Below are positions 19,046 through 64,000 of a DNA stretch of 64,000 bases, piece after piece. Position 1 is the stretch's first letter. Each line of letters starts with the position of its first letter. The stretch is from IMG/VR virus record IMGVR_UViG_2541047802_000007; one strand, 5' to 3'. A program made the position numbers and the translations under genes. A model generated the notes under the pieces. The model was given only the letters and a program-made list of their open reading frames with translations. It ran no database searches and had not been told where the DNA came from. Source of the DNA: a virus (taxonomy: Duplodnaviria > Heunggongvirae > Uroviricota > Caudoviricetes).

Positions 19046-19057
19046 TTAAGGGATTTT

Positions 19058-19213: not shown

Positions 19214-20038
<825 letters not shown>

Positions 20039-20248: not shown

Positions 20249-20542
20249 ATGACACTACCCAAGTTCAGGAATGACCTACAAGTTGAAGCTAATTACTCTA
20301 TCAATCAAGCCCGTGAAATGGTTGGGAAAACGGTGAAATCTGTCCAGATTGGTTTTCAGAAAACTGGAGTACAGGTTCATCAGACTGAAATGCTAATCAT
20401 CACGTTTACAGATGACACTCAACTTGCCATCTCAACAGGTTCAAACGTTGTAAACATAACGTCGTTAATTGGGCGTGGTGGCAGTTGCGAGCTTAAGCCT
20501 GCGGATTTTCACGTAGATTTTGATTTGACCTGGCAAAGATGA
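20249..20542 (+). CDS. Hypothetical small protein
   Basis: ORF track 97 aa. Confidence 0.35.
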   Translation: MTLPKFRNDLQVEANYSINQAREMVGKTVKSVQIGFQKTGVQVHQTEMLIITFTDDTQLAISTGSNVVNITSLIGRGGSCELKPADFHVDFDLTWQR

Positions 20543-20629
20543 CAAATCCGGCCGTGCCAGCGGCCTTTTTCATGCTCGTCCTGCTGGCACGGCCGCAAAC
20601 CTAATCCTGTAAGGTGACACTTAAGCGTG

Positions 20630-21418
20630 TCAGAACTGCGCAATAACAACCTTCACTTTTCCTTCCGCGTCTTTAGATTCCAGATCGGTTTTCACGCCCA
20701 AAGGATTATTTATGTAGCAATCCGGGTCATATACAAACAAGATCAACGTATCGCAGTCTTGGTGAGCGCGGTAGCGCGCCATATCAATAAGCAACTCTCC
20801 ACCAACTTTACCCGCTCCCAGAGATTCACGGGTTTTCTTCACCTCTATCACAATTTTCTCTTTTTTCAAAAGAAAGTCCTGTCTTGAGGCCGCGCCCGCA
20901 AAGCTGGGGGTATACTCTTCCGCCCTAATATCATTAAAATGAAGCGTCAGCAGTGCATAAATCAAATCCTGTACGTCATACTCATCATTAACTTCAAGCG
21001 GCGCACGGCCGTTGTACCGCCTCTTTAACTGGCGAACAAAGGTCGGAAACCTGTTAAGAATATTAAGTACGAGGCTCAGCGGCGAACCTTCTTGAGGAGT
21101 ATTAGTACTGACAGCAGAGTGCGCAAGATCATCTCTCGCCGCATCAAACAACGGTTTATAACTTTTGATCAGTGTATTGTAATTAGAAGACCACCTGCTG
21201 TTTACAGTATTGAAGTCATTGTAATAATCAGACTCTTTTCCGTAGCTGTCCTCTATTAACTTTTTCACTCTGGCGATCCAGTTTTTATATTTACCAGAAT
21301 CAACATAGGTTTCCATAGTGTGAGTGAGAACGTTCTGCGCAGTATATTTTGTGGAAATGAGCGCATCGTAATCTTTCTCAAGCGCCCTAAATCTTTCTTC
21401 CAGTTGTAGATTTGTCAT
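20630..21418 (-). CDS. Hypothetical protein with PD-(D/E)xK-like motif
   Basis: Mirror of 8720..9508. Confidence 0.45.
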   Translation of the reverse strand: MTNLQLEERFRALEKDYDALISTKYTAQNVLTHTMETYVDSGKYKNWIARVKKLIEDSYGKESDYYNDFNTVNSRWSSNYNTLIKSYKPLFDAARDDLAHSAVSTNTPQEGSPLSLVLNILNRFPTFVRQLKRRYNGRAPLEVNDEYDVQDLIYALLTLHFNDIRAEEYTPSFAGAASRQDFLLKKEKIVIEVKKTRESLGAGKVGGELLIDMARYRAHQDCDTLILFVYDPDCYINNPLGVKTDLESKDAEGKVKVVIAQF

Positions 21419-21612
21419 AGTGCCTTCCAGGCTGTATAGTCGGATAACAAGGTCTGTGCGTATGGAAATTCTACCATACTTAGCCTTCTTTTCTTCACAC
21501 TGGGCGTAACAGCCATTCTGTCCAGCCCCCCTAGCGTGATCTTACCTGCTGCGGCATTCGGTTGTCTTAGCTCCGGAATAATATTCGGAGATGCATAACT
21601 GTCCAGTGCCAT
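21415..21612 (-). CDS. Hypothetical small protein
   Basis: Mirror of 8526..8723. Confidence 0.3.
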   Translation of the reverse strand: MALDSYASPNIIPELRQPNAAAGKITLGGLDRMAVTPSVKKRRLSMVEFPYAQTLLSDYTAWKAL

Positions 21613-21844
21613 ACGCGCCCCAATCCTATATATCTACTTCATAGCTTTTCAGTAAGGAATGAATATATTAATTTCTGTGATGATTAGTATCGGAGGGTAC
21701 GAATGACTATATATCGCTCATAGCAAACGCTCACATCTGTTATGGTTAGAAAGCAGGAAGAGGGGGACAGGCTACGGTATAAGAAAAGTGGGTTGTTGTT
21801 TATGGCCGCATTGAGAGTGTCGAATCAGGCTAAAGAGAAGAAGC

Positions 21845-21870
21845 AAAAAAGCCCGCATCAGCGGGCTTTC
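21845..21870 (-). terminator. Rho-independent terminator beyond att
   Basis: Mirror of 8268..8293. Confidence 0.5.
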
Positions 21871-21997
21871 ATTTCACTTCGGAGCCGCGGCTCCTTTGCG
21901 TATCCTTTTATGTCTCCTCACCGTCTGGTCGGTGTCCTGCTGAGACTTCTAACTTCCTGTTTTTGTTGGTGTTGTCCTTACACCGTCCAATCATGAT

Positions 21998-22042
21998 TGG
22001 TGGAGCTGGCGGGAGTTGAACCCGCGTCCGAAATTCCTACAT
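21998..22042 (-). other. ssrA: ssrA 3'-end fragment = prophage att core
   Basis: Revcomp matches tmRNA 3' end ending CCA; 3' end points away from prophage. Confidence 0.8.
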
Positions 22043-22158
22043 ACCATTATAACATGTTGCAAAACAACTATTTATGTTAATTTTCAATCACTTAAGTTTA
22101 CGATGTATTACCTTGTTTTATGTGTTTTTAACTCTTTGCCGCCATTATGCCGCCACTC

Positions 22159-31436: not shown

Positions 31437-32846
31437 ATGTCTTTTCTTGATATAAAAAAAATGAGTAAAGAGAGGTTTAATGCTTTTGTTGATTGGACCA
31501 GAATGCCAAATACTGAACTTTTAGGCTATGAGTTTGAGTGGTACTGTAGTCCGAGAGAGTTCCTGCTAGGGGCACTATTATTGGATCAAATCGATGAAGA
31601 TTATAGCGGTATTGTTTTAGCAAGAGACTTAAGTGGGAGATATAGATGTATTGACCTATTTACTAGTGTTTCAGAAATGAATTCTGCACGAGCAAAACTA
31701 AAGAAATTAATGCGGAAGCATACTAAATTAAACGTAAAAGTATTTCCACAAGGTGATGAAACTTATAAAGCAATGGATTTATTCACACCTATAGTTACAC
31801 CAGATAAACTTCATCATCATTTTTCATTATTTGGTAAATATGCGAACTGGTCGCCTGCAACAGGGATAATCAAGGAAATGATGAATCATTTTGAGGATGT
31901 CGACGGGAATTTTATAGAGCAGTTTCAGACAACAGGTTTTGATGCCCGGCTATGGGAGTTATATCTTTTCGCATATTTACGAGAGGAACACTTTTGGCTA
32001 GATAGGCAGTTTAATGCCCCTGATTATGTGGCACGTAAGTATGGTAATACTATTTGCATTGAAGCTGTAACGGTTAATCCAACAGGGAATGATATTAATC
32101 AATCATCTGAAATGCTATCTGAACCTAAAAGTAAGGAAGAATTGCTAGAGAAAATAGAGAATTATATGCCGATTAAATTTGGAAGTTCTCTCTATTCTAA
32201 ACTGAAAAAGAAAACTCGATACTGGGATCTAGAACATGTTAAGGGGAATCCTTTAATTTTCGCAATTGCTGATTTTCATGAACCAAACTCTATGATTTGG
32301 TCCCATAGTGCACTTTGGCAGTATCTTTATGGTATTCGCTATGAGCATGTTAAATCTGAAGATGGATGTTACAGTTTAGCAACTAAGAAAATTATATCGC
32401 ATCAATTTGAGAAAAAGGAAATTCCTTCAGGCTTTTTCTTCTTGGATGAGTCTGAAAATATTTCGGCCGTCCTTAGTTCTAATAGTGGTACTATATCGAA
32501 GTTTAATCGGATGGGAAAACTGGCTGGTTTTGGAAGAAGTGACCTTAGATTATTTAGGAGTGGTTACTGCCATGATCATGACCCAGAGGCATTATATCCA
32601 GCAGCATTTAGTTTTGAAGTGAAAGAAGGCGATATTACAGAAACATGGGCAGAAGGTTTAAATATGTATCATAATCCTAATGCTAAATATCCTGTAGATC
32701 CTGATTTATTTCCTTCAATAGCACATCATTTTCTTGAAAATGGAGAGGTTAAAAGTATAGTGCCTGACTTTCATCCGTATACATCTATTACCATAAATGT
32801 CTTAACTCAAAATAATAAAAAACAAAAAATCAGAGTAGATGAGTAA
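31437..32846 (+). CDS. AT-rich cargo protein of unknown function, 469 aa
   Basis: Long ORF in low-GC island between cos-like site and portal gene; no recognisable motif. Confidence 0.6.
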   Translation: MSFLDIKKMSKERFNAFVDWTRMPNTELLGYEFEWYCSPREFLLGALLLDQIDEDYSGIVLARDLSGRYRCIDLFTSVSEMNSARAKLKKLMRKHTKLNVKVFPQGDETYKAMDLFTPIVTPDKLHHHFSLFGKYANWSPATGIIKEMMNHFEDVDGNFIEQFQTTGFDARLWELYLFAYLREEHFWLDRQFNAPDYVARKYGNTICIEAVTVNPTGNDINQSSEMLSEPKSKEELLEKIENYMPIKFGSSLYSKLKKKTRYWDLEHVKGNPLIFAIADFHEPNSMIWSHSALWQYLYGIRYEHVKSEDGCYSLATKKIISHQFEKKEIPSGFFFLDESENISAVLSSNSGTISKFNRMGKLAGFGRSDLRLFRSGYCHDHDPEALYPAAFSFEVKEGDITETWAEGLNMYHNPNAKYPVDPDLFPSIAHHFLENGEVKSIVPDFHPYTSITINVLTQNNKKQKIRVDE

Positions 32847-35694: not shown

Positions 35695-35836
35695 GGCACA
35701 AACCTACAGCCTTGAATGAAGGCTTTCCCCGCCTGCGGTTTGTGTGGTTGTCGGTACAAATACCGCGCATTGTTTCACTGCCCCCATCACCGCAACCATA
35801 AGGCTCCAGTAAGTTTTTTCTAACGGAGCACGGCTC

Positions 35837-41711: not shown

Positions 41712-43412
41712 TTATTCAAGGTGATTTGAAAGAGTAATTAATGGCTCAATCGGTTGGAACGCTTTTAAGGATGTTAATATGTTTTTAACTTCCTTTGATA
41801 CGATAGATAACGGGTTGTCTGTTACAGATAAGTAGGTGGTTAAATCTTGACCTGAAACACGGATAACATGTGGTAATATCGCAGTTATAACTGGTGTCCA
41901 AAGGTCGATTAAATCATCCAGAGAGTTATTTTTAGATAATGCTGTATCATATTTATATTTTATTTTCTTCTTGTTCAAAGGTTTATCTGTTAATTCTTCA
42001 AGTATTTCTCCGATGACGGATATTAAAAAGAATCGAGACTTTAAATTTTGGAGGAATAATAAGTTATCCTCATCTACTTTAATTTTATTCTCTTTTGCAC
42101 GGATTTGAGATTTTACTTTTTCTATAGCTTTTGAAATAGTGTAAGCACATAAAATATGCTGGGCTTTCGAATCATGAAAGGCATTGTCATAGGCTGATTT
42201 TGTATCGAAAACGTAGTTTTTACCTCTATTGGCGCTAACATAATCCCCATGTAACGCTATCAGCGGTTGAGCAACAGACTCAATGCCAAATAAAGAACCA
42301 GTATTTTCGAAGCCGCGTTTCAGTGAATATGTATAACCAAGAGTGGAAAATTCTTCTGCCACCTGTTTTTGTTCTGTGCTGTTAGAGTAGTGATCCCAGG
42401 TTGTAATATGATTCTGAGTATTATTATACTGGACTATTTTTTTTACTTTGTCCGCATCATTACATTCAATAACCTTACAAAGGACTTTTAGGCCATCTAA
42501 TTTTTGTATATCTTGAACTGAACCAATAGAACCAGTGGTTTGAGCTCCATTTATGATTGAAACTCCTTCCAACAACCCTTTTTCTTTGTTGAATTTTGTT
42601 GTTAGGATTGATACACCATTGTTAAAGACAAAGAAGTCTTTTGGGGATGTTTCTGCGGTATTCTTAATTGATGAGTTTATTTTTCTTCTCTTATTTAATC
42701 CCATGAACCCCCTATAATTAGCAGAAAATAATTCTGCTCCATAATTTTTGTATAAATAATTTAGCCAAGTGCCGTTTGCAAAGCCAACATGTGAAGTCCA
42801 GCCATCACCTTGTACAGAATTTATAAGTTCGCCATTGAACTTTATATTGTCAGTCACAACAATTTGTTGTGATAGCGCAATATACAATTTTTCAAGACTA
42901 TTAACACCAAGTTCTCTGTAAGTTACCTCAATTTCTTTGTCTGCAAATCTACCTGCTAGATAGTCACGACAAGTTTCAAGCTCAGTTTTAACCTGCTCAG
43001 ATTCGGCACAATTATGGATATATAATAATTCAACAGCTTCAATTTCGTTATCATCAATTAATTTTCTAACCTCAGAAATTTTTGCTCTTAATTTTGCATT
43101 TGGAGACTCTCCTGAGCCTGCCATAATCCACGCTAAAGCAGTGTTTAAGTCAGAAGCTTTATTTGCAGGCGCAACTATTTTAAGTGCTTGCTGATTGCAG
43201 TAGTAACCCTGAGCAATAAATAACGTTGAATTAATTACGGTAATGAAGTCTATTTTCTTATCGTTTCCACCATCAGTAAGTCCATCAGATGCTAGCTTAT
43301 CAAAATCGGATTCATCTAAGTAAAGACCTAATGACCATAAAAGATGTGCGTTACTAGTCCCGTACTTTTCTAACAGGGAAGTTTTATTTTGCAGTTGTCT
43401 TAAGTGTTCCAT
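41712..43412 (-). CDS. AT-rich cargo protein, 566 aa, possibly Abi/AIPR-like
   Basis: Opposite-strand ORF in low-GC island between S and V; contains NGAQT; family not verified. Confidence 0.55.
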   Translation of the reverse strand: MEHLRQLQNKTSLLEKYGTSNAHLLWSLGLYLDESDFDKLASDGLTDGGNDKKIDFITVINSTLFIAQGYYCNQQALKIVAPANKASDLNTALAWIMAGSGESPNAKLRAKISEVRKLIDDNEIEAVELLYIHNCAESEQVKTELETCRDYLAGRFADKEIEVTYRELGVNSLEKLYIALSQQIVVTDNIKFNGELINSVQGDGWTSHVGFANGTWLNYLYKNYGAELFSANYRGFMGLNKRRKINSSIKNTAETSPKDFFVFNNGVSILTTKFNKEKGLLEGVSIINGAQTTGSIGSVQDIQKLDGLKVLCKVIECNDADKVKKIVQYNNTQNHITTWDHYSNSTEQKQVAEEFSTLGYTYSLKRGFENTGSLFGIESVAQPLIALHGDYVSANRGKNYVFDTKSAYDNAFHDSKAQHILCAYTISKAIEKVKSQIRAKENKIKVDEDNLLFLQNLKSRFFLISVIGEILEELTDKPLNKKKIKYKYDTALSKNNSLDDLIDLWTPVITAILPHVIRVSGQDLTTYLSVTDNPLSIVSKEVKNILTSLKAFQPIEPLITLSNHLE

Positions 43413-50391: not shown

Positions 50392-50525
50392 CGGTTGACG
50401 ATCTGGTGGCAGATATCGCCACCATTTTTCACTGGCCGCCATCCGTTACTGACGTTATGCCGCTGACCGAAGTGCTGGAATGGCGGTATAAAGCGATTCA
50501 GAGAAGCGGGGCCAACGATGAGTGA
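50089..50525 (+). CDS. gpE+E' product of programmed -1 frameshift
   Basis: Slippery T_TTT_TTA at 50346..50352; -1 frame open to stop at 50523..50525, overlapping T start. Confidence 0.6.
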
Positions 50526-53500
50526 TAACAACCTGCGTCTGCAGGTCATTCTTAATGCGGTTGACAAGCTCACCCGCCCATTTCGATCTGCGCAGGCCAG
50601 TTCAAGAGAACTGGCTGCTGCTGTCAAAAAATCCCGCGATGCAATAAAGCAGCTTGATCAGGCCGGGAGCAGTCTGGACAGCTTCCGAAAGCTGCAGGCA
50701 GAAAATCAGAAATTAGGCGACAGGCTGAACTATGCCCGCCAGCGTGCAAATTTGCTCAGTCAGGAACTGGGAGCGATGGGGCCGCCTTCGCAACGTCAGG
50801 TTGTTGCTCTGGGCCGTCAACGGCTGGCTGTTCAGCGCCTGGAAGAACGCCAGAAAAAGCTGCAGCGGCAGACGGCGCTTGTGCGTGCTGAACTGTACCG
50901 GGCGGGAATTTCTGCGAAAGACGATGCGGGAGCAACTGCCCGTTTAGCCCGTGAAACATCACGTTATAACCAGGAACTTTCGAAACAGGAGGCGCGGCTG
51001 AAGCGACTGGGGGAAGCTCAGCGCAGGATGAATGCAGCGCGTGCCAGTTATGCCCGTTCGCTGGAGGTGCGTGATCGTATTGCAGGTGCCGGAGCCACCA
51101 CCACGGCTGCAGGGCTGGCAATGGGTGCGCCAGTGATGGCGGCAGTAAAAAGCTATACCAGCATGGAAGATGCCATGAAAGGTGTGGCAAAGCAGGTCAG
51201 TGGTTTGCGTGACGATAATGGCAACCGCACTGCACGTTTTTATGAAATGCAGGATGCCATCAAGGCTGCCAGCGAACAGTTGCCGATGGAAAACGGTGCG
51301 GTGGACTTCGCTGCACTGGTTGAAGGTGGTGCGCGCATGAACGTCGCAAACCCTGACGACAGCTGGGAAGATCAGAAACGTGACCTGCTGGCCTTCGCCA
51401 GTACGGCAGCAAAGGCGGCAACAGCCTTTGAGCTGCCAGCGGATGAACTGTCAGAAAGTCTGGGGAAAATCGCCCAGCTCTACAAAATCCCCACCCGCAA
51501 TATTGAACAGCTCGGTGATGCGCTGAACTATCTGGATGATAACGCCATGTCGAAAGGGGCAGACATCATTGATGTGATGCAACGTCTGGGCGGTGTGGCT
51601 GACCGTCTGGATTATCGTAAAGCGGCGGCGCTGGGTTCCACCTTCCTGACACTGGGCGCTGCGCCAGAGGTTGCAGCCAGTGCAGCAAACGCGATGGTGC
51701 GTGAATTGTCCATTGCCACCATGCAAAGCAAGAGTTTCTTTGAAGGGATGAATCTGCTGAAACTCAATCCTGAAGTGATTGAAAAGCAGATGACGAAGGA
51801 TGCGATGGGAACCATCCAGCGCGTGCTGGAGAAGGTAAACGCGCTGCCGCAGGACAAGCGCCTGTCTGCCATGACTATGTTGTTTGGTAAAGAGTTTGGC
51901 GATGACGCGGCGAAACTGGCAAACAACCTGCCGGAACTGCAGCGTCAGTTAAAACTGACAGCGGGCAATGATGCGCTTGGCTCCATGCAGAAAGAATCCG
52001 ACATTAACAAGGATTCACTTTCTGCGCAGTGGTTGCTGGTCAAAACCGGAGCGCAGAACACCTTCAGCAGCCTGGGCGAAACGCTGCGCCAGCCGCTGAT
52101 GGATATTCTGTACACGGTGAAAAGCGTCACGGGGGCGTTGCGTCGCTGGGTGGAAGCTAACCCGGAACTGACAGGCACACTGATGAAAGCATCGGCTGTT
52201 GTGGCTGCGGTTACCGTCGGCCTCGGCACCTTAGCGGTGGCGCTGGCTGCAGTGCTGGGGCCGCTGGCAGTGATCCGTCTGGGATTCTCTGTGTTGGGTA
52301 TCAAAACGTTATCTTCCGTTACGGCAGCAGTAACTCGAACCAGCAGCGCGTTGTCCTGGCTGGCTGGCGCACCACTGGCACTGCTGCGACGCGGGCTTGC
52401 TTCATCGGGCAACGCCGCAGGTTTACTTACTGCGCCGTTGTCGTCTTTGCGCCGCACGGCATCACTGACGGGAAATGTCCTGAAAACTGTAGCAGGTGCG
52501 CCGGTTGCACTTTTGCGGTCTGGATTATCCGGTTTACGTGCTGTTGCTGTGATGTTTATGAATCCTCTGGCGGTACTGCGCGGTGGACTGGCCGCCGCAG
52601 GCACGGTGCTGCGAGTACTGGCATCTGGTCCACTGGCGATGCTGCGCGTTGCCCTGTATGCCATATCTGGTCTGTTAGGTGCTCTGCTCAGTCCGATAGG
52701 TCTTGTGGTTACTGCACTGGCGGGCGTGGCGCTGGTTGTCTGGAAATACTGGCAACCTATCACCGCATTTCTCGGTGGCGTGGTGGAAGGATTCAAAGCG
52801 GCGGCAGGTCCCATCAGTGCAGCGTTCGAACCGCTTAAGCCCGTGTTCCAGTGGATTGGCGACAAAGTGCAGGCGCTGTGGGGCTGGTTTACTGATCTAC
52901 TGACGCCCGTTAAGTCGACCTCTGCCGAACTGCAGAGCGCAGCGGCAATGGGGCGGCGATTCGGGGAGGCACTGGCGGAAGGGCTGAATATGGTCATGCA
53001 TCCGCTGGACTCCCTGAAATCCGGCGTTTCCTGGTTGCTGGAGAAGCTCGGCATTGTCAGTAAAGAGGCCGCAAAGGCAAAACTGCCGGAAAGCGTGACG
53101 CGTCAGCAACCTGCGACGGTGAATGCAGACGGTAAAGTGATGATGCCATCGGGTGGTTTTCCATCATGGGGATATGGCTTTGCGGGGATGTATGACAGCG
53201 GCGGGTATATCCCGCGCGGGCAGTTTGGCATCGTCGGTGAAAACGGGCCGGAAATTGTTAACGGCCCGGCAAATGTGACCAGCCGGAGAAATACAGCTGC
53301 ACTGGCTGCCGTTGTTGCCGGAATGATGGGCGTTGCTGCCGCGCCAGCAGAGCTTCCACCGTTGCACCCCTTGGCACTTCCCGCGAAAGGTGGAGAAGCA
53401 ATTGTGAGTCGCGCAGCCACTGTGCCACTCGTTCAACGGATTGAGGCACCGACGCAGATCATCATTCAGACGCAGCCAGGACAAAGTGCGCAGGATATTG

Positions 53501-53595
53501 CGCGGGAGGTGGCACGCCAGCTTGATGAACGTGAACGCAGGCTGAAGGCAAAAGCCAGGAGTAACTACAGCGATCAGGGGGGATACGACGCATGA
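50518..53595 (+). CDS. T: Tail tape measure protein T
   Basis: 1025 aa, Ala/Leu-rich repeats. Confidence 0.85.
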   Translation: MSDNNLRLQVILNAVDKLTRPFRSAQASSRELAAAVKKSRDAIKQLDQAGSSLDSFRKLQAENQKLGDRLNYARQRANLLSQELGAMGPPSQRQVVALGRQRLAVQRLEERQKKLQRQTALVRAELYRAGISAKDDAGATARLARETSRYNQELSKQEARLKRLGEAQRRMNAARASYARSLEVRDRIAGAGATTTAAGLAMGAPVMAAVKSYTSMEDAMKGVAKQVSGLRDDNGNRTARFYEMQDAIKAASEQLPMENGAVDFAALVEGGARMNVANPDDSWEDQKRDLLAFASTAAKAATAFELPADELSESLGKIAQLYKIPTRNIEQLGDALNYLDDNAMSKGADIIDVMQRLGGVADRLDYRKAAALGSTFLTLGAAPEVAASAANAMVRELSIATMQSKSFFEGMNLLKLNPEVIEKQMTKDAMGTIQRVLEKVNALPQDKRLSAMTMLFGKEFGDDAAKLANNLPELQRQLKLTAGNDALGSMQKESDINKDSLSAQWLLVKTGAQNTFSSLGETLRQPLMDILYTVKSVTGALRRWVEANPELTGTLMKASAVVAAVTVGLGTLAVALAAVLGPLAVIRLGFSVLGIKTLSSVTAAVTRTSSALSWLAGAPLALLRRGLASSGNAAGLLTAPLSSLRRTASLTGNVLKTVAGAPVALLRSGLSGLRAVAVMFMNPLAVLRGGLAAAGTVLRVLASGPLAMLRVALYAISGLLGALLSPIGLVVTALAGVALVVWKYWQPITAFLGGVVEGFKAAAGPISAAFEPLKPVFQWIGDKVQALWGWFTDLLTPVKSTSAELQSAAAMGRRFGEALAEGLNMVMHPLDSLKSGVSWLLEKLGIVSKEAAKAKLPESVTRQQPATVNADGKVMMPSGGFPSWGYGFAGMYDSGGYIPRGQFGIVGENGPEIVNGPANVTSRRNTAALAAVVAGMMGVAAAPAELPPLHPLALPAKGGEAIVSRAATVPLVQRIEAPTQIIIQTQPGQSAQDIAREVARQLDERERRLKAKARSNYSDQGGYDA

Positions 53596-54077
53596 TGATG
53601 GTGCTGGGATTGTACGTGTTTATGCTGCGCACCGTTCCGTATCAGGAACTGCAGTATCAACGCAGCTGGCGACATGCGGCAAACAGTCGGGTAAACCGAC
53701 GTCCGTCCACGCAGTTTCTGGGACCGGAAAACGACATGCTGACGCTTTCCGGTGTTCTTATGCCGGAAATAACAGGCGGCAGGCTGTCGTTGCTGGCACT
53801 GGAGCAGATGGCAGAACAGGGGAAAGCATGGCCCCTGATTGAAGGCAGCGGCACGATTTACGGCATGTATGTGATTGAGGGACTGAATCAGACTAAAACG
53901 GAGTTTTTCCGCGACGGTATGCCGCGCCGGATTGAGTTCACCCTGTCGCTCAAACGAGTGGATGAATCCCTGTCCGATATGTTCGGTGATCTCAGTGCGC
54001 AACTGAATAATCTGCAGGACACGGCAACGTCTGCCTTAAGCGATATCAGTAAAACGGTGGGAGGGCTGCTGTCGTGA
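53592..54077 (+). CDS. U: Tail protein U
   Basis: 161 aa. Confidence 0.7.
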   Translation: MMMVLGLYVFMLRTVPYQELQYQRSWRHAANSRVNRRPSTQFLGPENDMLTLSGVLMPEITGGRLSLLALEQMAEQGKAWPLIEGSGTIYGMYVIEGLNQTKTEFFRDGMPRRIEFTLSLKRVDESLSDMFGDLSAQLNNLQDTATSALSDISKTVGGLLS

Positions 54078-55174
54078 ATTTCAGCTCTGAACTGCTTAAC
54101 AAAGGCAACAAAACTCCCGCATTCAGCATCAGTATTGAGGGCAGGGATATCACCACTGTGCTGGATAACCGCCTGATGAGTTTGACGCTGACGGATAACC
54201 GGGGCTTTGAAGCGGACCAGCTTGATCTGGAGCTGGATGACGCTGACGGAAAAATCGTGCTGCCGCGCCGTGGTGCGGTTATTACGCTGGCGCTGGGCTG
54301 GAAGGGGCAGCCGCTTTTCCCGAAAGGGGCATTCACAGTGGACGAGATTGAACACACTGGCGCACCGGACCGCCTGACTATCCGGGCGCGAAGTGCTGAT
54401 TTTCGGGAAACGCTGAATACCCGCCGTGAAAAATCGTGGCATAAGACCACCGTCGGGGAAGTGGTGAAGGAAATAGCCGCGCGGCACAAGCTGAAGATGG
54501 CACTGGGTAAAGACCTGTCGGATAAGCCCGTGGAGCATATAGACCAGACTAATGAGAGTGACGGCAGTTTTCTGATGCGGCTGGCGCGACAGTACGGTGC
54601 CATCGCGTCGGTGAAAAATGGCAATCTGTTATTCATCCGGCAGGGGCAGGGCAAAAGCGCCACTGGTAAACCTCTGCCAGTGATCACTATCACACGCAAG
54701 GACGGCGACAGTCACCGATTTACCCTGGCAGATCGCGGAGCCTACACGGGCGTAATTGCCAGCTGGTTGCATACCCGCGAACCTGCGAAGAAAGAAAGCA
54801 CCACGGTGAAGCGTAAGCGCAGAACTAAGAAGCAGAAGAAAGAGCCGGAAGCGAAGCAGGGCGATTACCTGGTGGGTACGGATGAAAACGTGCTGGTACT
54901 TAATCGCACTTATGCCAACCGGAGCAACGCTGAACGGGCAGCGAAAATGCAGTGGGAACGCCTGCAACGCGGCGTTGCGTCATTCTCGCTACAACTGGCG
55001 GAAGGGCGGGCAGATCTTTACACGGAAATGCCAGTGAAAGTTAGTGGCTTTAAACAACCGATAGATGATGCGGAATGGACCATTACGACTCTGACTCATA
55101 CCGTCAGCCCGGATAATGGTTTTACGACCAGTATTGAACTCGAAGTGAAGATTGATGATCTTGAAATGGAATAA
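54074..55174 (+). CDS. D: Tail protein D
   Basis: 366 aa, last tail gene. Confidence 0.75.
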   Translation: MNFSSELLNKGNKTPAFSISIEGRDITTVLDNRLMSLTLTDNRGFEADQLDLELDDADGKIVLPRRGAVITLALGWKGQPLFPKGAFTVDEIEHTGAPDRLTIRARSADFRETLNTRREKSWHKTTVGEVVKEIAARHKLKMALGKDLSDKPVEHIDQTNESDGSFLMRLARQYGAIASVKNGNLLFIRQGQGKSATGKPLPVITITRKDGDSHRFTLADRGAYTGVIASWLHTREPAKKESTTVKRKRRTKKQKKEPEAKQGDYLVGTDENVLVLNRTYANRSNAERAAKMQWERLQRGVASFSLQLAEGRADLYTEMPVKVSGFKQPIDDAEWTITTLTHTVSPDNGFTTSIELEVKIDDLEME

Positions 55175-55242: not shown

Positions 55243-55329
55243 ATGATGAATTGTCCAAAGTGTGGTCATGCGGCACACACAAGGAGCAGTTTTCAAGTAA
55301 CTGAAAGCACCAAAGAGCGTTACTGCCAG
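55243..55329 (+). pseudogene. ogr: Ogr/B-type zinc-finger late activator, truncated after codon 29 by Mu-like insertion
   Basis: MMNCPKCGHAAHTRSSFQVTESTKERYCQ then stop supplied by first bases of inserted element. Confidence 0.7.
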
Positions 55330-55410
55330 TGAAGCGGCGCACGAAAAGCGCGAAAGCGTTTCAAATAAAATACGAAAACTCAAAACTTTCGCGCTTCAAT
55401 TGAGACAGTT
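55330..55410. promoter_or_regulatory. Mu-type right end with transposase-binding repeats
   Basis: tgaagcggcgcacgaaaagcgcgaaagcgtttcaaataaaatacgaaaac closely resembles the Mu R-end as recalled. Confidence 0.75.
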
Positions 55411-55422
55411 GTTTTATGTATG

Positions 55423-55869
55423 TCAGTTTCGTTTACATTTATATGTCTTAAAAATATTCACATCATCTCGGATATAAAGATTTTTTCCTGATTTATCAAC
55501 GATAAAATACTTTATAACCGCAGGATTTCTAGTCAAAGCATAGAGATAATCAGTCCCTTTAATCTTTTCATCCTTGTCTTGTTCGTCAATTTGGCCTGTT
55601 TCTATCTGAGTGTATAGTTCACCTGTATCAAGGTCTGTCCATGACCCCATATCAACGCCCATATGCATACGAATACCGTGGCAGGTCCAAAAACCAGAGG
55701 CAGGGGCTTTATTTGCAACACTCTTATCTGGATCTATCCCGGCGGACCTTAAGACTGCATCAGCAGCCACTTCAGGATCAAAATCTTTTTCTTGAGCGTG
55801 ATTGACTGAGGAGGCGGTTAGTACGAATAGGCTGATGATGGTACTGATTAGCAATTTTGATTTTTTCAT
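55423..55869 (-). CDS. Secreted hypothetical protein (signal peptide), AT-rich
   Basis: MKKSKLLISTIISLFVLTASSVNHA signal-like N-terminus; between mom and element end. Confidence 0.5.
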   Translation of the reverse strand: MKKSKLLISTIISLFVLTASSVNHAQEKDFDPEVAADAVLRSAGIDPDKSVANKAPASGFWTCHGIRMHMGVDMGSWTDLDTGELYTQIETGQIDEQDKDEKIKGTDYLYALTRNPAVIKYFIVDKSGKNLYIRDDVNIFKTYKCKRN

Positions 55870-55913
55870 CTAATATGCTCCGTATGTGAGTAAATACATA
55901 AATTTATATGATA

Positions 55914-56651
55914 CTAATCAGAACTGCTTTTTGGGTATGGCTGAATCCTGAATAGTTTGGTATTTAGCCGCTTTCTTGCTCGCTTGTTCAGGAACCTGAT
56001 GTAGCGATACTGATTAAATTTGTGCACCACGGCACGCTCTTTATTAGCCCGTAAATACATGCCTCGTTGTCCACCGCGCTTAATTGCGTTCATCGTTATC
56101 TCGTGATACCACTCACCATCCAGCTCGTAGAACGTGCTTTCATGGCTGCCAATAAAATCAAAATTTGACGCCTGATACACAACGCCAGCACGTCCGCAGC
56201 GTTCGTCTGCAAAAGACTGAACCCACTCCACTGACGGATACAGTAACCTTATGGTTTTCAGTGCATAACTGATGGCCCGTGATTCAGAGTTGCGGGGCAT
56301 GTCGTCGTGTAGCCACATGCGGTTCAACTCCATATAGCCCCGGTTATCCGTTTCAAGCACGACACGACGACCAGAGTTGGGGTTAAGGGCATATCCCCAC
56401 TGGAGAACGCCAACCAGATCGCGTCCGCTGAATACTCCCAAGTGGAGGTAAGAGTTATTCACAAAACGGCGGGAATAGTGCTTTGTCTGAATAATTGTGC
56501 GGGCCAGCCAGCAGGATATGGTTTCAACGCGCAGCTCCTTTGAACCATAGCCAACAATCTGGCTTTCATACTCAATAACGCACGGTTTCGTCAGAATGCG
56601 TGATTTCTTCTCTTTTCCCACAATGTTTCTCCGTGGGATGCTCGCAGGCAT
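55914..56651 (-). CDS. mom: Mom-like DNA modification protein (start uncertain)
   Basis: 245 aa ORF overlapping com 3' end, downstream of gin-com. Confidence 0.55.
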
Positions 56652-56760
56652 TCAGCATTATGATATGACGTTTGCAACGCGGACACCTGATTTCAATGTG
56701 ATCAAAGGAATCCGCCTTAAATAACAGTTTGTTGCAGTTTTTACAGCGAATTGATTTCAT
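56572..56760 (-). CDS. com: Com zinc-finger translational activator of mom
   Basis: 62 aa [14 protein letters not shown]...RCPRCKRH four-Cys finger. Confidence 0.7.
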
Positions 56761-56818
56761 CTCACCTCCTTTGCATCAATTCGCCACTATCTTAAAAAAC
56801 ATCGTGGGTTGAGTGTGG

Positions 56819-57436
56819 TTATTGGGGCATAATCGATCTGTATTGCCGATCGATTTGATTGATTCGATCGTCGTTTTCTATATGCGTTCGTTTCGCGGGG
56901 TGTTTTTTATACAGAGTTGACAGAGCCACATCATAGATCAATGCAACCTGCTTGCGGGGGATTCCTTGTACTAATAAACGCCCGGCCTGCTCCCATTCCG
57001 CTTTGGTTAGTTTAGGTGGTCGCCCACCAATACGGCCTTTATTTCTGGCGGCAGCAAGTCCAGCCATCGTTCGCTCGATGATTAGTTCTCGTTCCATTTC
57101 AGCCAGGGCACCCATAACGTGGAAGAAAAAACGCCCCATTGGAGAAGATGTGTCTATGCTGTCGGTAAGACTGCGAAAATTAATCCCTCGCTCCCGTAGT
57201 TCCCCGACGAGGGAAATCAGATGTTTCATGCTTCGCCCGAGGCGATCCAGTTTCCAGACAACCAGTGTGTCACCTTTTTGAAGGCGCTTTAACGCGCGTT
57301 TTAATCCAGGTCTGTCTGTCCTTGTTCCGCTTAATTTATCTTCAAATATTTGTTCACATCCTGCACAAACAAGAGCGTTTCGTTGCAGGTCTGTATTCTG
57401 GTCATTTGTTGATACCCTTACATAGCCAATCAGCAC
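56819..57436 (-). CDS. gin: Gin/Pin-family serine DNA invertase, intact
   Basis: 205 aa; catalytic Ser in YVRVSTNDQ; C-terminal HTH. Confidence 0.85.
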   Translation of the reverse strand: MLIGYVRVSTNDQNTDLQRNALVCAGCEQIFEDKLSGTRTDRPGLKRALKRLQKGDTLVVWKLDRLGRSMKHLISLVGELRERGINFRSLTDSIDTSSPMGRFFFHVMGALAEMERELIIERTMAGLAAARNKGRIGGRPPKLTKAEWEQAGRLLVQGIPRKQVALIYDVALSTLYKKHPAKRTHIENDDRINQIDRQYRSIMPQ

Positions 57437-57490
57437 TCTGGATCTCCCGTTTAAAAGCGCAAATCACGCCATGCAGGCCGGAAACAACCA

Positions 57491-57516
57491 TTATCTAAAA
57501 CCTCGGTTTACAGGAA
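57491..57516. other. gix crossover site (invertase-proximal)
   Basis: ttatctaaaacctcggtttacaggaa, inverted repeat of 60486..60511. Confidence 0.75.
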
Positions 57517-58377
57517 ACGGTAAACAGGGCTGGTAACGCCGTGCAAAAAAATGGCGATACCTTGTCCGGTGGGCTTACTTTTGAAAATGACTCAATCCTT
57601 GCCTGGATTCGAAATACTGACTGGGCGAAGATTGGATTTAAAAATGATGCCGATGGTGACACTGATTCATACATGTGGTTTGAAACAGGCGACAACGGCA
57701 ATGAATATTTCAAATGGAGAAGCCGCCAGAGCACCACAACAAAAGACCTGATGACGCTGAAATGGGATGCACTAAATATTCTGGTAAATGCCGTCATTAA
57801 TGGCAGTCTTGGAGTTGGTACGACGAATGCGTTAGGTGGTAGCTCTATTGTTCTTGGTGATAATGACACCGGATTTAAACAGAATGGAGACGGCATTCTG
57901 GATGTTTATGCTAATAGTCAGCGTGTATTCCGCTTTCAGAATGGAGTGGCTATTGCTTTTAAAAATATTCAGGCTGGGGATGGTAAAAAATTCACGCTAT
58001 CCAGCTCCAACAACTCCACGAAGAACGTAGGGTTTAATTTATGGGGCGCTTCGTCAAGGCCAACTGTTGCAGAGCTTGGCGATGATTCTGGCTGGCATTT
58101 CTATAGTCAGCGAAATACAGATAACTCAGTAATATTTGCTGTTAACGGTCAGATACAACCCAGCAACTGGGGGAATTTTGATTCCCGCTATGTGAAAGAT
58201 GTTCGCCTAGGTACGCGTGTTGTTCAATTGATGGCGCGTGGTGGTCGTTATGAAAAAGCCGGACACGCAATTACCGGATTAAGAATCATTGGTGAAGTAG
58301 ATGGCGATGATGAAGCCATCTTCAGACCAATACAAAAATACATCAATGGCACATGGTATAACGTCGCACAGGTGTAA
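57517..58377 (+). CDS. Alternative tail-fibre variable segment S'v (silent in this orientation)
   Basis: Frame opens at crossover site and would fuse to Sc after inversion. Confidence 0.65.
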   Translation, partial: TVNRAGNAVQKNGDTLSGGLTFENDSILAWIRNTDWAKIGFKNDADGDTDSYMWFETGDNGNEYFKWRSRQSTTTKDLMTLKWDALNILVNAVINGSLGVGTTNALGGSSIVLGDNDTGFKQNGDGILDVYANSQRVFRFQNGVAIAFKNIQAGDGKKFTLSSSNNSTKNVGFNLWGASSRPTVAELGDDSGWHFYSQRNTDNSVIFAVNGQIQPSNWGNFDSRYVKDVRLGTRVVQLMARGGRYEKAGHAITGLRIIGEVDGDDEAIFRPIQKYINGTWYNVAQV

Positions 58378-58380
58378 ATT

Positions 58381-58914
58381 ATGCAGCATTTAAAAAATAT
58401 TAAGTCAGGAAATCCAAAAACAAAAGAGCAATATCAGCTAACAAAGAATTTTGATGTTATCTGGTTATATACAGAAGACGGTAAAAACTGGTATGAGGAA
58501 GTAAATAACTTTCAGGAAGACACCATAAAGATTGTTTACGACGAAAATAATATTATTGTTGCCATAACCAAAGATGCCTCCACACTTAACCCTGAAGGTT
58601 ATAGCGTCGTTGAGATTCCTGATATTACCGCCAACCGGCGTGCTGACGACTCAGGTAAATGGATGTTTAAAGATGGCGCAGTCATTAAACGTGTATATAC
58701 CGAAGAAGAGTTGCGCCTACAGACGGAAAACCAGAAAAAAATATTATTACAGCAGGCCAGAGAAAAAACGCAGTTCTGGCAAACACAGCTTGCGCTGGGA
58801 ATTATCAGCGATTCAGACAGGCAAAGACTCATTAACTGGATGTTATACATGCAGCAGGTTGATGCCACAGATACCTCTGTTCTTCCTGTAACATTCCCGG
58901 AACAACCAGAATGA
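58381..58914 (+). CDS. Tail fibre assembly protein U'
   Basis: 177 aa. Confidence 0.7.
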
Positions 58915-58942
58915 GACAAGGCCCGCTATCGGGCCTTAATTT

Positions 58943-59470
58943 TTATTCAGGCTTTTGTGGCCATTCAGGCTTTGCCGTATCTACACGGCTGACCAGAACG
59001 CTGTAGCGTTCCCATGATTCCAGCCGTGTGCGTTCCTTGTCTGTTGCCATATTCAGCCTTACAGCACGTTCCAGCGGTTGAATCACAGACTCCGCTTCAG
59101 AAAGCAAAGCGGCTTTTTGTAACTCAGCCTGCTGCTGCAGTTCCTGTTCTGTATATTCCCGTTTTACCACTTTACCATTCAGAAACATCCAGTTTCCGTA
59201 ATTATCTGCGCGACGATTTGCCGTAATATCGGATACTTCAACAACACTTAAACCTTCCGGGTTAATAGTTGAAACATCTTTGCTTACGGTAACAATCACA
59301 TTATTTTTATCGTATGCAATTTTTATAGTATCTGGTTGAAAGTTTTTTTGTTCTTCGTACCAGTTTTTACCATCTTCAGTATAAAGCCAGACAACTCCAG
59401 CTTTTTTGGTTAACTGGTATTGTTCTGGTGTTTTTGGGTTTCCTGCTTTAATGTTTTTTAAATGCATCAT
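58943..59470 (-). CDS. U: Tail fibre assembly protein U
   Basis: 175 aa. Confidence 0.7.
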
Positions 59471-59471
59471 G

Positions 59472-61007
59472 TCAAATACTCACAACGTTATAATATGTCC
59501 CACCAATCAACTTCTGAATAGGTCTTCTGGTTAATGTATCAATAAACTCATCGGTGTTGCTGTTTCCGGCTGCGGTCAGAACATATCCAGAAGTATCCCA
59601 ATAACCAGGGCCTCGCCATGCTGATATTGATTCTGCGCTACCAAGTCGAATGTCTCTTACATATGTGCTATTGAGATAATCAGCTAAATTTGAACCCCAA
59701 CACCCGCCAAATATATTTCCATCGGTGTTATAACGGATGCCACCCGCAACAAGAGCACCCGGTGAAATAAAAGATTTATCGTTCGGGTTAAACTGCCATA
59801 AAGCATCATTACCGCCATCGCCACGCATATGAATACATGGAACCGGAAATCCATACTGTTCTGTCAGCAAATAACCAAAGCTGACCGCGCCGGGATAGCC
59901 CTGTCCATTGCGAATGGACAAGCCCTTAACTATCGGCACGTAATGACCACCAGGAGTGGGATTCCAGGCAAACTGCGTCTGAACAAAAGGCGCGGTGGCA
60001 TTATTCAACTGGTCTGCAAATGCGCCACTTCCATCAGGAATTATTCCCTGATGAATATATGCAACCCGCTTATAAAAATCAGCAGATGCGGGTTGAAGCC
60101 CGAATGCCAGTTGTCCATTTGAATAGAATAAAAGGACACCGTCGCCGCCCTGTTTAATACCAGTGTCGTTATCTCCGAGAGTAATGGAATTACCGCCCAG
60201 TGCGTTATCTGTACCAAGCGCCAGCCCACCATCAATTTTGGCCCCGTGGCTGACCGATATAGCTCCTGTTCTCAGATTTATAGCGAATGGCCTTAATGGG
60301 CCGATATCACCGTTTTCGCCTTGTCCTTCAGCCGTAGGGATGAAATGAAGGTACTCTTCTGAACGACGGAAAATAAGACCGAAGGCATCATTAAAAATTC
60401 GCAGCGCATTCATCGTGCCAATTTTCAGTTCTCCGGTCATTTTATCGCCGGAACGCTGAACGGCGTTACCAGCCTTGTTTACCGTTTCCTGTAAACCGAG
60501 GTTTTGGATAAACAGCGGCTTATTGGGAATATCTGCTCCGTTCCGGTCTTTTGCCAGACGGGCATTGGCATTATCCATCGCAATTTTCACCGCTTTTGCA
60601 GTGGCTGCCAGCGTTTCACTGGGGCTGTCAGTGGCACTGGTTAGCTGAACGAGTCCTTTTTTGTTCAGGCTGGCATCATAGATATCCAGATTTTCACGTG
60701 CTGTACGCTGTGCTGATGCCCCGGCAGTTTTAATTTCGCTGAGGTTATTTTTTATCAGCAGCGCGTTATTGCTCATAATGGCTTTAATGGACAGTGCAAG
60801 CTGGTTTAATTTTGTTTTATCCGGTTGAATACCGGCTTCTTCCAGCGTGTTTAATAACTCCGCCTGCACAATATTAAACCAGTCCATGCCGGGCCATGTG
60901 ATAACATTATTCCCGTCACCTTCTGAAAACCAGCGAACGATAGCACTACGCTGGGCGGATACGGGCGGCATGACGGTTACGCCGCTGTCGTTATCAATAT
61001 AAAACAT
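59472..61007 (-). CDS. S: Tail fibre protein S (constant Sc + variable Sv, current orientation)
   Basis: 511 aa; gix site lies in frame (FIQNLGLQE) inside the gene. Confidence 0.8.
60486..60511. other. gix crossover site (inside S)
   Basis: ttcctgtaaaccgaggttttggataa. Confidence 0.75.
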
Positions 61008-61549
61008 TAGTTATCTCCGTCATGGTAAACAAATTTATAAATCTGATGTGCGGGTTTATATTTCTCCAGTAAACATTCCAGCGCACCCGATTCATAAACA
61101 CGTAACGGCGTCAGAACATTATCCAGCACCGTTGCGTTGCGATAATTTTTAATACCGTAAATATTGACCTGCGTAACCCACTGGCCTTCTGTGGAATCCG
61201 TCAGCCTAACGGTAAAACCGTACTGTGCAGCCAGCCATTCATAAAAGCGCCGACTCAGATTGCCGGTCATACGCATTTTATTCGCGGCAGCCCGCTGGCG
61301 TTCGGACAAGGTGCCGTTTTCGCTGGTACAGTCCGGCAACCCCAGAAATGATTCCCACTCCCCCAGATACCAGCGGGATGTGGACGGGAAACGCTCCCGC
61401 AGCATTTGCCGCGCATCATCCGCCGCAGTGGCAATCACGTCGCTGATGGCCTGCGCCAGCGCAGATAATTTGCTGTCGGGGCTTTTATTCCAGGCAAGCC
61501 CTGACGGCAGTAATTGCAGAAAGGCCGTCTGATAGGGTGTTACAGCCAT
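61007..61549 (-). CDS. Tail protein (Mu gp48-like)
   Basis: 180 aa, position between baseplate J-like gene and S. Confidence 0.55.
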   Translation of the reverse strand: MAVTPYQTAFLQLLPSGLAWNKSPDSKLSALAQAISDVIATAADDARQMLRERFPSTSRWYLGEWESFLGLPDCTSENGTLSERQRAAANKMRMTGNLSRRFYEWLAAQYGFTVRLTDSTEGQWVTQVNIYGIKNYRNATVLDNVLTPLRVYESGALECLLEKYKPAHQIYKFVYHDGDN

Positions 61550-62622
61550 TCAATTGTCCCCGGTGTTAACAGTTCCGTATTCTCCGAACGCTGGATCTCT
61601 GTCGGGAAACGCACTTCAAAATCATCCAGACCGGTAACACCTGCCACCGCACGGATAATACGGGAGGGGGCAAGTGCGCCGCCCGGCGTCACCTCATTAA
61701 AAAACATGGTATTAATGGCGTGGGTAATAGCCTGTTTCAGTTCGGCTGTCTTCGGTGATATATAAATCCGTGGATTTACCGGCTTTGCCTTTGGCGCAAA
61801 TACAGTGACATTTACACCGTCAGGCTGTCCGACAATCAGACCGGTGATCGGGTCAGTATGACCGGCGATATAATCCGCCACGCGTTCCACGTCTGCCGGT
61901 TGTGGAAAAATATTGCTCCGGTTATCCATAACAAACGTCACCCCGACTGTGCCACCGCCTTTCCATGTCGGAAAACACCAGGCACGGGTAACGCCGCTGA
62001 CTTCACGTGCCCAGCGAACGTAATCAAACTGATTACCGCCGAACGGAGGGTACTGGACACGATATTCCAGCCGTGACAGCAGTTCCGCTGCACTCTCAAT
62101 ATCAGCTCCACCGGAAAACCCTTTTACAGTGATGGCATCGGAAACAACACAGGCAACCGGGGTGATCAACGTTAAAAGGGTATTCTCACCGGTATTTCCT
62201 GCTTCACCGGCAGCCAGTGCGGTAACGGTAATTTCCGTCGTTCCTGCACGGTCAATCACAATGGCATCAGCCAGGCTGTAAACCACACCATCAGCACGCT
62301 GCCAGCGTGTACCGGCAGGAATGGTGGTCGCTGCCGATGTGGTGACAGTCAGCGGGCCGCTGGCGGCTGTCGCCTGTTTGCGGCGCACGCCCCAGAACCG
62401 GCAGTGCTCCAGCAACTCATCTTCATCTGCTGTCGACGGGATAATCTGCCGTCCAACCCATGAAATATGCTCGTGACAACCGGCAGCAAGCCCTGCCTGG
62501 GCGTAAGCAATGGCACTCAGCGTTTTTTCACGGGCCTGAGGCCAGCTACCCGGCAGGCGCTGTTCAATATTCTGTTCTGTACGGGCAATCAGCGATGATA
62601 ATGTCGGTGGTGAATAAGCCAT
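61540..62622 (-). CDS. Baseplate J-like protein (Mu gp47-like)
   Basis: 360 aa. Confidence 0.65.
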   Translation of the reverse strand: MAYSPPTLSSLIARTEQNIEQRLPGSWPQAREKTLSAIAYAQAGLAAGCHEHISWVGRQIIPSTADEDELLEHCRFWGVRRKQATAASGPLTVTTSAATTIPAGTRWQRADGVVYSLADAIVIDRAGTTEITVTALAAGEAGNTGENTLLTLITPVACVVSDAITVKGFSGGADIESAAELLSRLEYRVQYPPFGGNQFDYVRWAREVSGVTRAWCFPTWKGGGTVGVTFVMDNRSNIFPQPADVERVADYIAGHTDPITGLIVGQPDGVNVTVFAPKAKPVNPRIYISPKTAELKQAITHAINTMFFNEVTPGGALAPSRIIRAVAGVTGLDDFEVRFPTEIQRSENTELLTPGTIEWL

Positions 62623-63060
62623 TTAAACCCCGTTAAATGCTGCTTTAAACTCATAAGGAATAACGGAACCATCCGGTAATGTCAGTGCAATGTAGAGGTA
62701 TAACCAGCCCTGATGTAACTGTTCCGCTCTGACGTTAACCGCACTTACCCGGCCTGCTGTTTTCAGCCATTCCAGCGCCTCTTCGGCATACCCTCTGGCA
62801 CGTTCCAGCGTATCCTGTGTGGCTTTTTCACGTGATAACAGCCACAACCGCGAACCAATGGGGCGGTCGCGGTAACTGTCACCCCACCATCCACGGCGAT
62901 CATCTGAACCATCCGGCAGCGTGTCAGAATCCAGCGCGCGCCGGTCGGTAAACAGGGAGATTGTCACATCGGTTGTCAGGCTGTCGTCGGTCAGCATATC
63001 AATGCCATCCTGTGCAATATCGCCGCGTCCGTTCGTCCAGATAATGGCTAAATCGGTCAT
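62623..63060 (-). CDS. Baseplate protein (Mu gp46-like)
   Basis: 145 aa. Confidence 0.55.
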   Translation of the reverse strand: MTDLAIIWTNGRGDIAQDGIDMLTDDSLTTDVTISLFTDRRALDSDTLPDGSDDRRGWWGDSYRDRPIGSRLWLLSREKATQDTLERARGYAEEALEWLKTAGRVSAVNVRAEQLHQGWLYLYIALTLPDGSVIPYEFKAAFNGV

Positions 63061-63650
63061 TGCATTGGCCCCGTGGTTCCGCCGCTGTCGCCACGGTGGA
63101 TATGCTTATCCGTCGATTTGCCATTGATGATGGCATCCGGGGCAGTAATATTGCTGTCGAACTGGCTTTTACCTTTAACGCCCAGACCTTTCTGGATCTC
63201 AACGTCGCCGGTAAACGTGGTTCTGGGTGTATCAACGGTCATACTTTCATCGGCGTAAATCTCAACCGTTTTACAGGTAATGATGCAGCGCCCGTCCTTT
63301 GTCAGCCTGATACGATGTCCCTCGTGGTGGTAAATGCCTGCATCACCCGGTTCAAGATTTGTCGGGCGGTAGCGGCGGTCTTCCACCACAACGGCAATCC
63401 CCTGATCACGTTGTGCACCCACACAGGCAATCAGCGCCTCTGCGCCCGGCAGAGGAACGCTGAAATGCCCGTAATTTTGCAGGCGCTCCACTTCATCAGA
63501 TTCCTCATCATCCAGCAGACCGACCTGCAGGTTCTGAACCTTTCGCCCGTCGTTAATCACGTTAACAACGGCACGCGCAAGCATCAGACGCACACGACGC
63601 ATCAGCGGTGCCAGCAGGCGGTTCATGGCGGAATCATTTACTCTTTCCAC
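63057..63650 (-). CDS. Baseplate assembly/spike protein V-like (Mu gp45-like)
   Basis: 197 aa. Confidence 0.6.
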   Translation of the reverse strand: MERVNDSAMNRLLAPLMRRVRLMLARAVVNVINDGRKVQNLQVGLLDDEESDEVERLQNYGHFSVPLPGAEALIACVGAQRDQGIAVVVEDRRYRPTNLEPGDAGIYHHEGHRIRLTKDGRCIITCKTVEIYADESMTVDTPRTTFTGDVEIQKGLGVKGKSQFDSNITAPDAIINGKSTDKHIHRGDSGGTTGPMQ

Positions 63651-64000
63651 GGCGGCGTTTTCTCCGGGTGTCTGCGATAATAATCTTCAACCAGCGCATC
63701 AATACCGCCGTTACTGTCGCCGCCTTTCCTGTTTTTACGGTCGCTTTCAACCGGCACCAGAAAGCCTTCGCGTGGTGCAAGGCTGACGCGGGTTTTCAGC
63801 CCGTCCTGGTCATTCAGTATCAGGGTGACTTTGCTGACCAGTAATTCTGTGGTTTTGATGGCATATATCGAGGCATCAATAGTGACCAGCAGGTTCGGCA
63901 TCCAGAGTTGCCCGTCCTTGCGTGTCCATCCGTCAATTTCTGCCTCAAAGGTGATGGATTTTGCCAGTCTGCGGCGTTGCTCACGCAGGGCGCGGGCCTG
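63638..64000 (-). CDS. Tail/baseplate protein (Mu gp44-like), partial: 5' end beyond window
   Basis: Frame stays open upstream of track M at 63901 to window edge. Confidence 0.45.
   Translation of the reverse strand, partial: QARALREQRRRLAKSITFEAEIDGWTRKDGQLWMPNLLVTIDASIYAIKTTELLVSKVTLILNDQDGLKTRVSLAPREGFLVPVESDRKNRKGGDSNGGIDALVEDYYRRHPEKTPPWKE

Follow-up and report, generated by a model that had tools for sequence, protein, structure and literature searches.

Phage Mu inserts near-randomly along DNA. Its target pentamer follows the consensus N-Y-S-R-N (PMC2602771). The late operons of P2-family phages need Ogr/B, a zinc-finger activator with the motif CX2CX22CX4C that acts at TGT-N12-ACA sites (PMC3931495). 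Here we describe a locus at which the two systems meet, within a stretch of viral DNA of 64,000 nt that was analysed as a whole (the window): a Mu right terminus (5'-TG) is joined between codons 29 and 30 of ogr/B. We surmise that a D108-type Mu-family phage entered ogr/B of a 186-like (Peduoviridae) prophage by MuA/MuB-mediated transposition, which we regard as the best explanation of the data and as likely to be correct.

The Mu terminus inside ogr/B

The features surrounding the join are the following:

54074-55174, plus strand: gpD (late control D / tail protein), the last late gene before ogr (Pfam Phage_GPD; annotated in MS7163 as 'phage late control D family protein')
55243-55332, plus strand: truncated ogr/B, 29 codons and a TGA from the Mu terminus; C4 and C7 kept, C30 and C35 lost
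55325-55329, no strand: GCCAG pentamer adjoining the Mu end, predicted to be one copy of a 5-bp target duplication; fits N-Y-S-R-N
55330-64000, minus strand: right arm of the D108-type Mu-family prophage, which leaves the window, its genes reading toward 55330; colinear with vB_YpM_3, D108, Mu_3F6 and Mu
55340-55356, plus strand: MuA-binding site R1 (consensus match; annotated homologue in D108)
55362-55378, plus strand: MuA-binding site R2 (consensus match; annotated homologue in D108)
55386-55402, minus strand: MuA-binding site R3, inverted (consensus match)

At 50518-55174 are tape measure T, U and D, the final late genes of a P2-family prophage, and ogr/B follows directly after gpD at the right end of this prophage. 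An earlier reading made from the sequence only had described a zinc-finger activator frame that stays intact for 29 codons, and this is what we find: the gene starts with ATG at 55243, its 29 codons (55243-55329) read MMNCPKCGHAAHTRSSFQVTESTKERYCQ, and TGA follows at 55330-55332. The assignment of the gene to ogr/B likewise holds on homology (Pfam PF04606) and on its position after gpD, the intact Ogr being 67% identical to the B protein of 186 and 56% to the Ogr of P2. A PDB sequence search with Ogr returned no matches. In E. coli MS7163, the intact allele encodes 72 aa with the zinc motif at C4, C7, C30 and C35; the window copy ends at Q29, leaving CX2CX22CX4C incomplete with only C4 and C7, and the insertion point lies directly before the codon of Cys30, the third zinc ligand. 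In keeping with this, the 29-aa fragment covers positions 1-27 of the 47 in Ogr_Delta (E = 2e-10) vs. positions 1-47 for the intact 72-aa allele (E = 9e-21). On these grounds, we take the window ogr to be a disrupted member of the Ogr/Delta family and not a functional one.

Alignment of window positions 16019-55331 with the MS7163 chromosome revealed one mismatch and no gaps over 39,313 nt, the single difference (51205 T/C) being synonymous. The match continues through 55331, with complete divergence beyond that point, inside ogr. At the MS7163 locus, the intact 72-aa 'ogr/Delta-like zinc finger family protein' is followed by a 160-aa ORF and then by ssrA. Judged by this alignment, the host of the window is very closely related to E. 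coli MS7163; in this closest sequenced relative, the prophage is ssrA-adjacent. The sequence from 55330 reads TGAAGCGGCGCACGAAAAG..., in longer form TGAAGCGGCGCACGAAAAGCGCGAAAGCG..., and its first three bases, TGA, terminate the ogr frame. The bases TG at the join are common to ogr codon 30 (TGC) and the Mu terminus, an overlap that is a coincidence. The coordinates given by the sequence-only reading for a Mu-like end inside ogr/B (55243-55410) were accurate, and its description is correct at base level.

Several lines of evidence identify this terminus: 1) position 55330 aligns with the last base of the linear Mu_3F6 and D108 records, and positions 55330-55331 are TG, the same base at which the Mu, D108 and Mu_3F6 records and 20 related prophages end; 2) the terminal 91 nt, when aligned to Mu attR as had been proposed, are about 84% identical to Mu by our count, differ from D108 by a single 1-nt indel and are identical to Mu_3F6, with the first 2,171 nt from 55330 showing 99.9% identity to Mu_3F6 and 99.4% to D108; 3) the MuA-site consensus YMNNWRAARYRCGAAAR, as used in the D108 annotation, has exactly three matches in the 64 kb vs. 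a shuffle expectation of 0.07, a count reached in none of 100 shuffles; and 4) these matches have the attR arrangement, with R1 and R2 direct and R3 inverted, all within about 80 bp of the end. The 20 related prophages, retrieved from public assemblies via look-ups with gene 56 and the 511-aa S protein, are D108-like and lie at 20 distinct chromosomal sites, all ending in ...GCCGCTTCA at the same nucleotide as here. Flanking pentamers fit N-Y-S-R-N in 15 of these 20 insertions, where one in eight would be expected by chance. The pentamer at our junction, GCCAG (CTGGC on the other strand), conforms too. Strain Esc30 served as a positive control: there, a phage of this type interrupts ldtD and is flanked by a perfect duplication of 5 bp (CTGAT).

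Beyond the terminal sites, the right arm comprises the following genes:

55423-55869, minus strand: D108 gene 56, D108-specific, with a signal peptide, absent from Mu (D108 annotation)
55914-56651, minus strand: mom (Pfam Mom; D108 annotation)
56572-56760, minus strand: com (Pfam Zn_ribbon_Com)
56819-57436, minus strand: gin invertase (Pfam Resolvase and HTH_7)
57491-60511, no strand: G segment plus S'/U' and U/Sv (inverted repeats; ORFs; D108 annotation)
59472-63650, minus strand: tail fibre S (59472-61007) and baseplate gp48, gp47, gp46 and gp45 (ORFs, protein look-ups)

The 8.7 kb past the junction thus keeps the Mu gene order of gene 56, mom, com, gin, G segment, S and baseplate genes. The earlier claim of a Mu right end with transposase-binding repeats stands: R1-R3 are present, and mom, com, gin and the G segment come after them. 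The element is of D108 type, however, and not Mu proper. All 12 proteins of this arm are identical to counterparts in other D108-like prophages, indicating that the visible 8.7 kb is undamaged.

The G segment is bounded by 55-nt inverted repeats (57491-57545 and 60457-60511). Its orientation here gives the 511-aa S; two otherwise identical prophages have the opposite orientation and a 460-aa S. Gene 56, situated between mom and the Mu right end, encodes a 148-aa protein with an N-terminal signal peptide. The AlphaFold prediction is a beta-barrel of eight strands, with a mean pLDDT of 78 that rises to >90 over residues 60-148. Compared with the PDB, this model is closest to the Tp0751 lipocalin fold, and only weakly so (E = 0.05, TM 0.4-0.5). 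The protein had no Pfam or PADLOC match; it belongs to PHROG 15648 (unknown function) and has homologues of 45-57% identity in Salmonella, Citrobacter and Hafnia. In the public Mu_3F6 record (LR595867.1), positions 1-149 are non-Mu DNA ahead of the Mu left terminus, probably a packaged host flank left in the deposit.

The far junction and competing explanations

Mu genomes are about 37 kb, of which 8.7 kb falls inside the window; these 64 kb contain neither the Mu left end nor a second target pentamer beside it, nor the 43 codons that would complete ogr. The earlier view of a prophage inserted in a prophage is thus borne out at one junction, that of the right end, with the other lying outside the window. 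If the copy is complete, the left end would sit about 37 kb (36-38 kb) rightward of 55330, and beyond it would come a second GCCAG and then the last 43 codons of ogr. We predict this far junction as ...GTGAATCAATACA-GCCAG-TGCCAAAATATTAAC..., or, in other excerpts, as ...GAATCAATACA-GCCAG-TGCCAAAATATT..., with TGCCAAAATATT as the rest of ogr, and as CTTCAAGTGAATCAATACA GCCAG TGCCAAAATATTAACTGCGGG. Both the 5-bp duplication of GCCAG and the completeness of the Mu copy are predictions; L1-L3, the repressor gene c, ner and the transposase genes A and B would be expected about 28-37 kb beyond the window end.

Mu replicative transposition generates inversions and deletions bracketed by Mu copies. 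Accordingly, the Mu end could be real without marking a simple insertion, either with Mu truncated or with the junction a product of intramolecular replicative transposition, so that the far side is not the rest of ogr. That a single junction is visible, with neither the left end nor the 3' part of ogr in the window, is compatible with such an event. However, the 8.7 kb of Mu in view shows no damage, all its proteins having identical counterparts in other prophages, and the 39-kb host flank is colinear with MS7163. In addition, each of the six complete genomes with this phage type carries one Mu copy, and Esc30, the one complete-genome control examined, is a simple insertion with a 5-bp duplication. 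We therefore consider a non-simple event unlikely.

The junction could also be an assembly chimera or belong to a rare subpopulation of molecules, e.g. from lytic Mu transposition, with the bulk of ogr intact. The join was found in none of the public genomes searched. Megablast against 5,426 complete E. coli genomes gave no record that spans the ogr/Mu junction, and exact scans for it were empty in IMG/VR, the JGI metagenomes and the GTDB representative genomes, as was an exact scan of the JGI metagenomes for the predicted left junction with a gap of 0-25 nt. Exact look-ups in protein and gene indexes returned neither the truncated Ogr, the two junction-spanning antisense ORFs nor the predicted left-junction ORF MNQYSQCQNINCGS..., and this insertion site did not appear among those returned by the look-ups with gene 56 and the 511-aa S protein.

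Also in favour of a chimera is a fold-back elsewhere in the contig, which shows the assembler mixing alternative states. As an exact reverse-complement pair, 1-14119 and 16019-30137 form a perfect 14,119-nt inverted repeat that reaches the first base of the window and is centred on 14120-16018. The turning point is the core of a pix-like invertase crossover site (TTCTCCCAAACC-AA-CGTTTATGAA) flanking an invertible tail-fibre segment, with the left junction in the MS7163 orientation and the right junction in the inverted one, which is present at 100% identity in >340 complete genomes (IHE3034, APEC O1 and PMV-1 among them). The fold-back is most likely an assembly artefact from a population of mixed orientation, the assembler having walked through the invertible segment. 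It does not involve the ogr/Mu junction, yet the contig assembly is not fully trustworthy.

Against a chimera, the fold-back can be traced to the invertible segment, which exists in both orientations in the lineage, whereas the ogr/Mu join has only 2 nt (TG) common to both partners, so that there is no repeat to mislead an assembler and repeat-induced misassembly is no plausible source. The join also falls exactly at the Mu terminal nucleotide and next to a pentamer that fits the consensus; real DNA molecules must have carried it. As for a subpopulation, lytic transposition scatters widely, and a single junction would presumably reach assembly coverage only if clonal. Taken together, we judge a chimera or subpopulation molecule very unlikely.

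Of a Pin/Gin-like invertase gene beside the invertible segment, no more than the initial ~41 codons are left (13916-14038, minus strand); they show 75% similarity to the Mu gin region (57315-57472) at its 5' end. With its invertase reduced to this remnant, the cryptic segment must be flipped by one encoded elsewhere, and Gin from the nested Mu is a candidate for flipping 14120-16018 in this strain. That Gin of the nested Mu is needed for this flipping was rejected, since the two orientations are both found, at 100% identity, among hundreds of complete genomes from this lineage.

Homologues of Ogr are full length: among the 15 listed members of its 90% cluster (368 members), 14 have 72 aa and one has 66 aa, and 211 of the 219 homologous records in the phage collection span at least 80% of the protein, with no naturally short homologue seen in either set. 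A natural end of ogr at codon 29, or a coincidental resemblance to the Mu end, has the in-frame stop in its favour and nothing else, and is of negligible probability when the former is excluded by these full-length homologues and the Mu identity extends for 8.7 kb with three MuA sites vs. 0.07 expected. We thus retain the insertion of a D108-type phage into ogr/B by transposition as the reading of choice.

The resident prophage and its late genes

The features of the resident prophage that bear on its type and on late activation are the following:

23387-25947, no strand: integrase and 186-type CI and CII (Pfam Phage_integrase, Phage_CI_repr / Phage_CI_C, Phage_CP76)
35741-35758, plus strand: TGT-N12-ACA dyad in the P/O divergent intergenic region, presumed Ogr/B target (consensus PMC3931495)
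43487-43504, plus strand: TGT-N12-ACA dyad upstream of the V operon, presumed target (consensus PMC3931495)
48244-48261, plus strand: TGT-N12-ACA dyad upstream of FI, presumed target (consensus PMC3931495)

The resident prophage had been called 186-like; with its 186-type CI and CII, its integrase, Dam and gpA, this label is a fair one. Its nearest nucleotide relatives are phages such as 500465-1 and KP12 and not 186 itself, and its late gene order is of P2 type (Q, P, O, N, M ... FI, FII, T, U, D). The corresponding prophage of MS7163 has an annotated DinI-like gene, a putative equivalent of 186 tum. Gene A (28089-30176) contains a 26-nt tandem duplication, with CCCCTTGGACTCGTGGCAATAACTGT present twice (30106-30131 and 30132-30157), which shifts the frame after residue 684 of the ~803-aa replication protein and leaves the C-terminal 118 codons as a separate ORF (30173-30529). 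The same lesion is found in MS7163, where PGAP flags the gene as 'frameshifted'. The prophage may therefore have been defective already before Mu arrived, in which case Mu may not have been the first inactivating event and the phenotypic effect of its insertion may be redundant.

The prophage and its surroundings also carry genes for defence against phages: PD-T7-1 (31437-32846, between genes A and Q) and an AIPR/AbiU-like protein (41712-43412, between genes S and V). To the left of the integrase (16324-21418) are a type IV methyl-directed restriction enzyme (GmrSD/DUF262), PD-T4-3 (GIY-YIG) and a DpnII/MboI-like REase, and a 407-aa protein of unknown function is encoded at 22159-23382.

Across the window, 19 TGT-N12-ACA dyads were found vs. 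17 expected, i.e. without enrichment, but 3 of the 19 lie in the three late-promoter gaps (~0.4 kb of the 64 kb), where we estimate that ~0.1 would occur by chance; only this placement is informative, and not the window-wide count. As for a substitute activator, no other complete Ogr-type finger was found in any frame of the window. With Cys30, Cys35 and the C-terminal 43 residues lost, the 29-aa product should be unable to form a zinc-centred fold or activate late promoters, and is almost certainly null. The late targets would appear to be intact with their activator gone, and the loss of late activation put forward by the sequence-only reading is what we, too, infer from the missing zinc ligands.

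Immunity of the 186-like prophage would be kept because CI is intact, while its head, tail and lysis genes should stay unexpressed, with no late transcription, particles or prophage-driven lysis unless another ogr/delta acts in trans. In addition, the gain of ~37 kb, if the Mu copy is complete, would yield a composite of ~70 kb, too large for a P2-type head. It is conceivable that the insertion was not neutral, with the loss of ogr/B and the doubled size permanently grounding a prophage that carries defence genes, so that selection would have favoured the disarming of one temperate phage by another; this seems to us quite improbable. Were it so, the host and the incoming Mu would keep the immunity and defence cargo of the prophage, comprising PD-T7-1 and the AIPR/AbiU-like protein, together with the neighbouring type IV restriction and PD-T4-3, free of lysis risk or competition.

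Comparison with known systems

D108-type right ends were found in 6 of the 5,426 complete E. coli genomes, at 4 sites, none in a prophage. The gene 56 protein occurs in 3,273 blocks of a draft-assembly collection, the D108 type being far commoner there than in complete genomes. Prophage DNA makes up several percent of such genomes; with near-random Mu insertion and a target of this size, an occasional insertion into a prophage gene is to be expected. That Mu landed in ogr, a gene of 219 bp, was fortuitous but not remarkable, the ordinary outcome of near-random insertion. The instance is new but the biology is known, and no new mechanism is revealed. Its value lies in showing a clear natural case of a nested prophage, in which a resident P2-family prophage would have lost its master late activator to a transposable phage; this is one way in which prophages may become locked in place. 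In automated annotation, such a locus would come out as two adjoining 'prophage regions' with ogr missing or very short, so that the composite has to be recognised as such.

Among described phages, Escherichia phage D108 (GQ357916 / NC_013594; genus Muvirus) has the same gene order and shares the D108-specific gene 56. Over the 8.7 kb, its record gives 79% coverage and 95% identity, with differences in the content and orientation of the G segment and in the variable parts of the tail fibre; the left half that defines D108 immunity (c, ner, A and B) lies beyond the window. 'Escherichia virus Mu_3F6' (LR595867; genus Muvirus) has an identical right terminus and the same gene order from gene 56 to the baseplate. 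The attR of Mu (AF083977) is alike in its terminal TG, its R1-R2-R3 arrangement and the order mom, com, gin, but Mu has no gene between mom and the end, where gene 56 (55423-55869) is found here.

On the side of the resident prophage, the MS7163 prophage and those of related strains such as S88 and ATCC 11775 share with the window the 26-nt duplication in gene A as well as the defence cargo, and differ from it in having an intact ogr and no Mu at ogr. Compared with 186 B and P2 Ogr (PF04606), the intact allele has 72 aa, the CX2CX22CX4C motif and a position after gpD, whereas the window copy retains two of the four zinc ligands.
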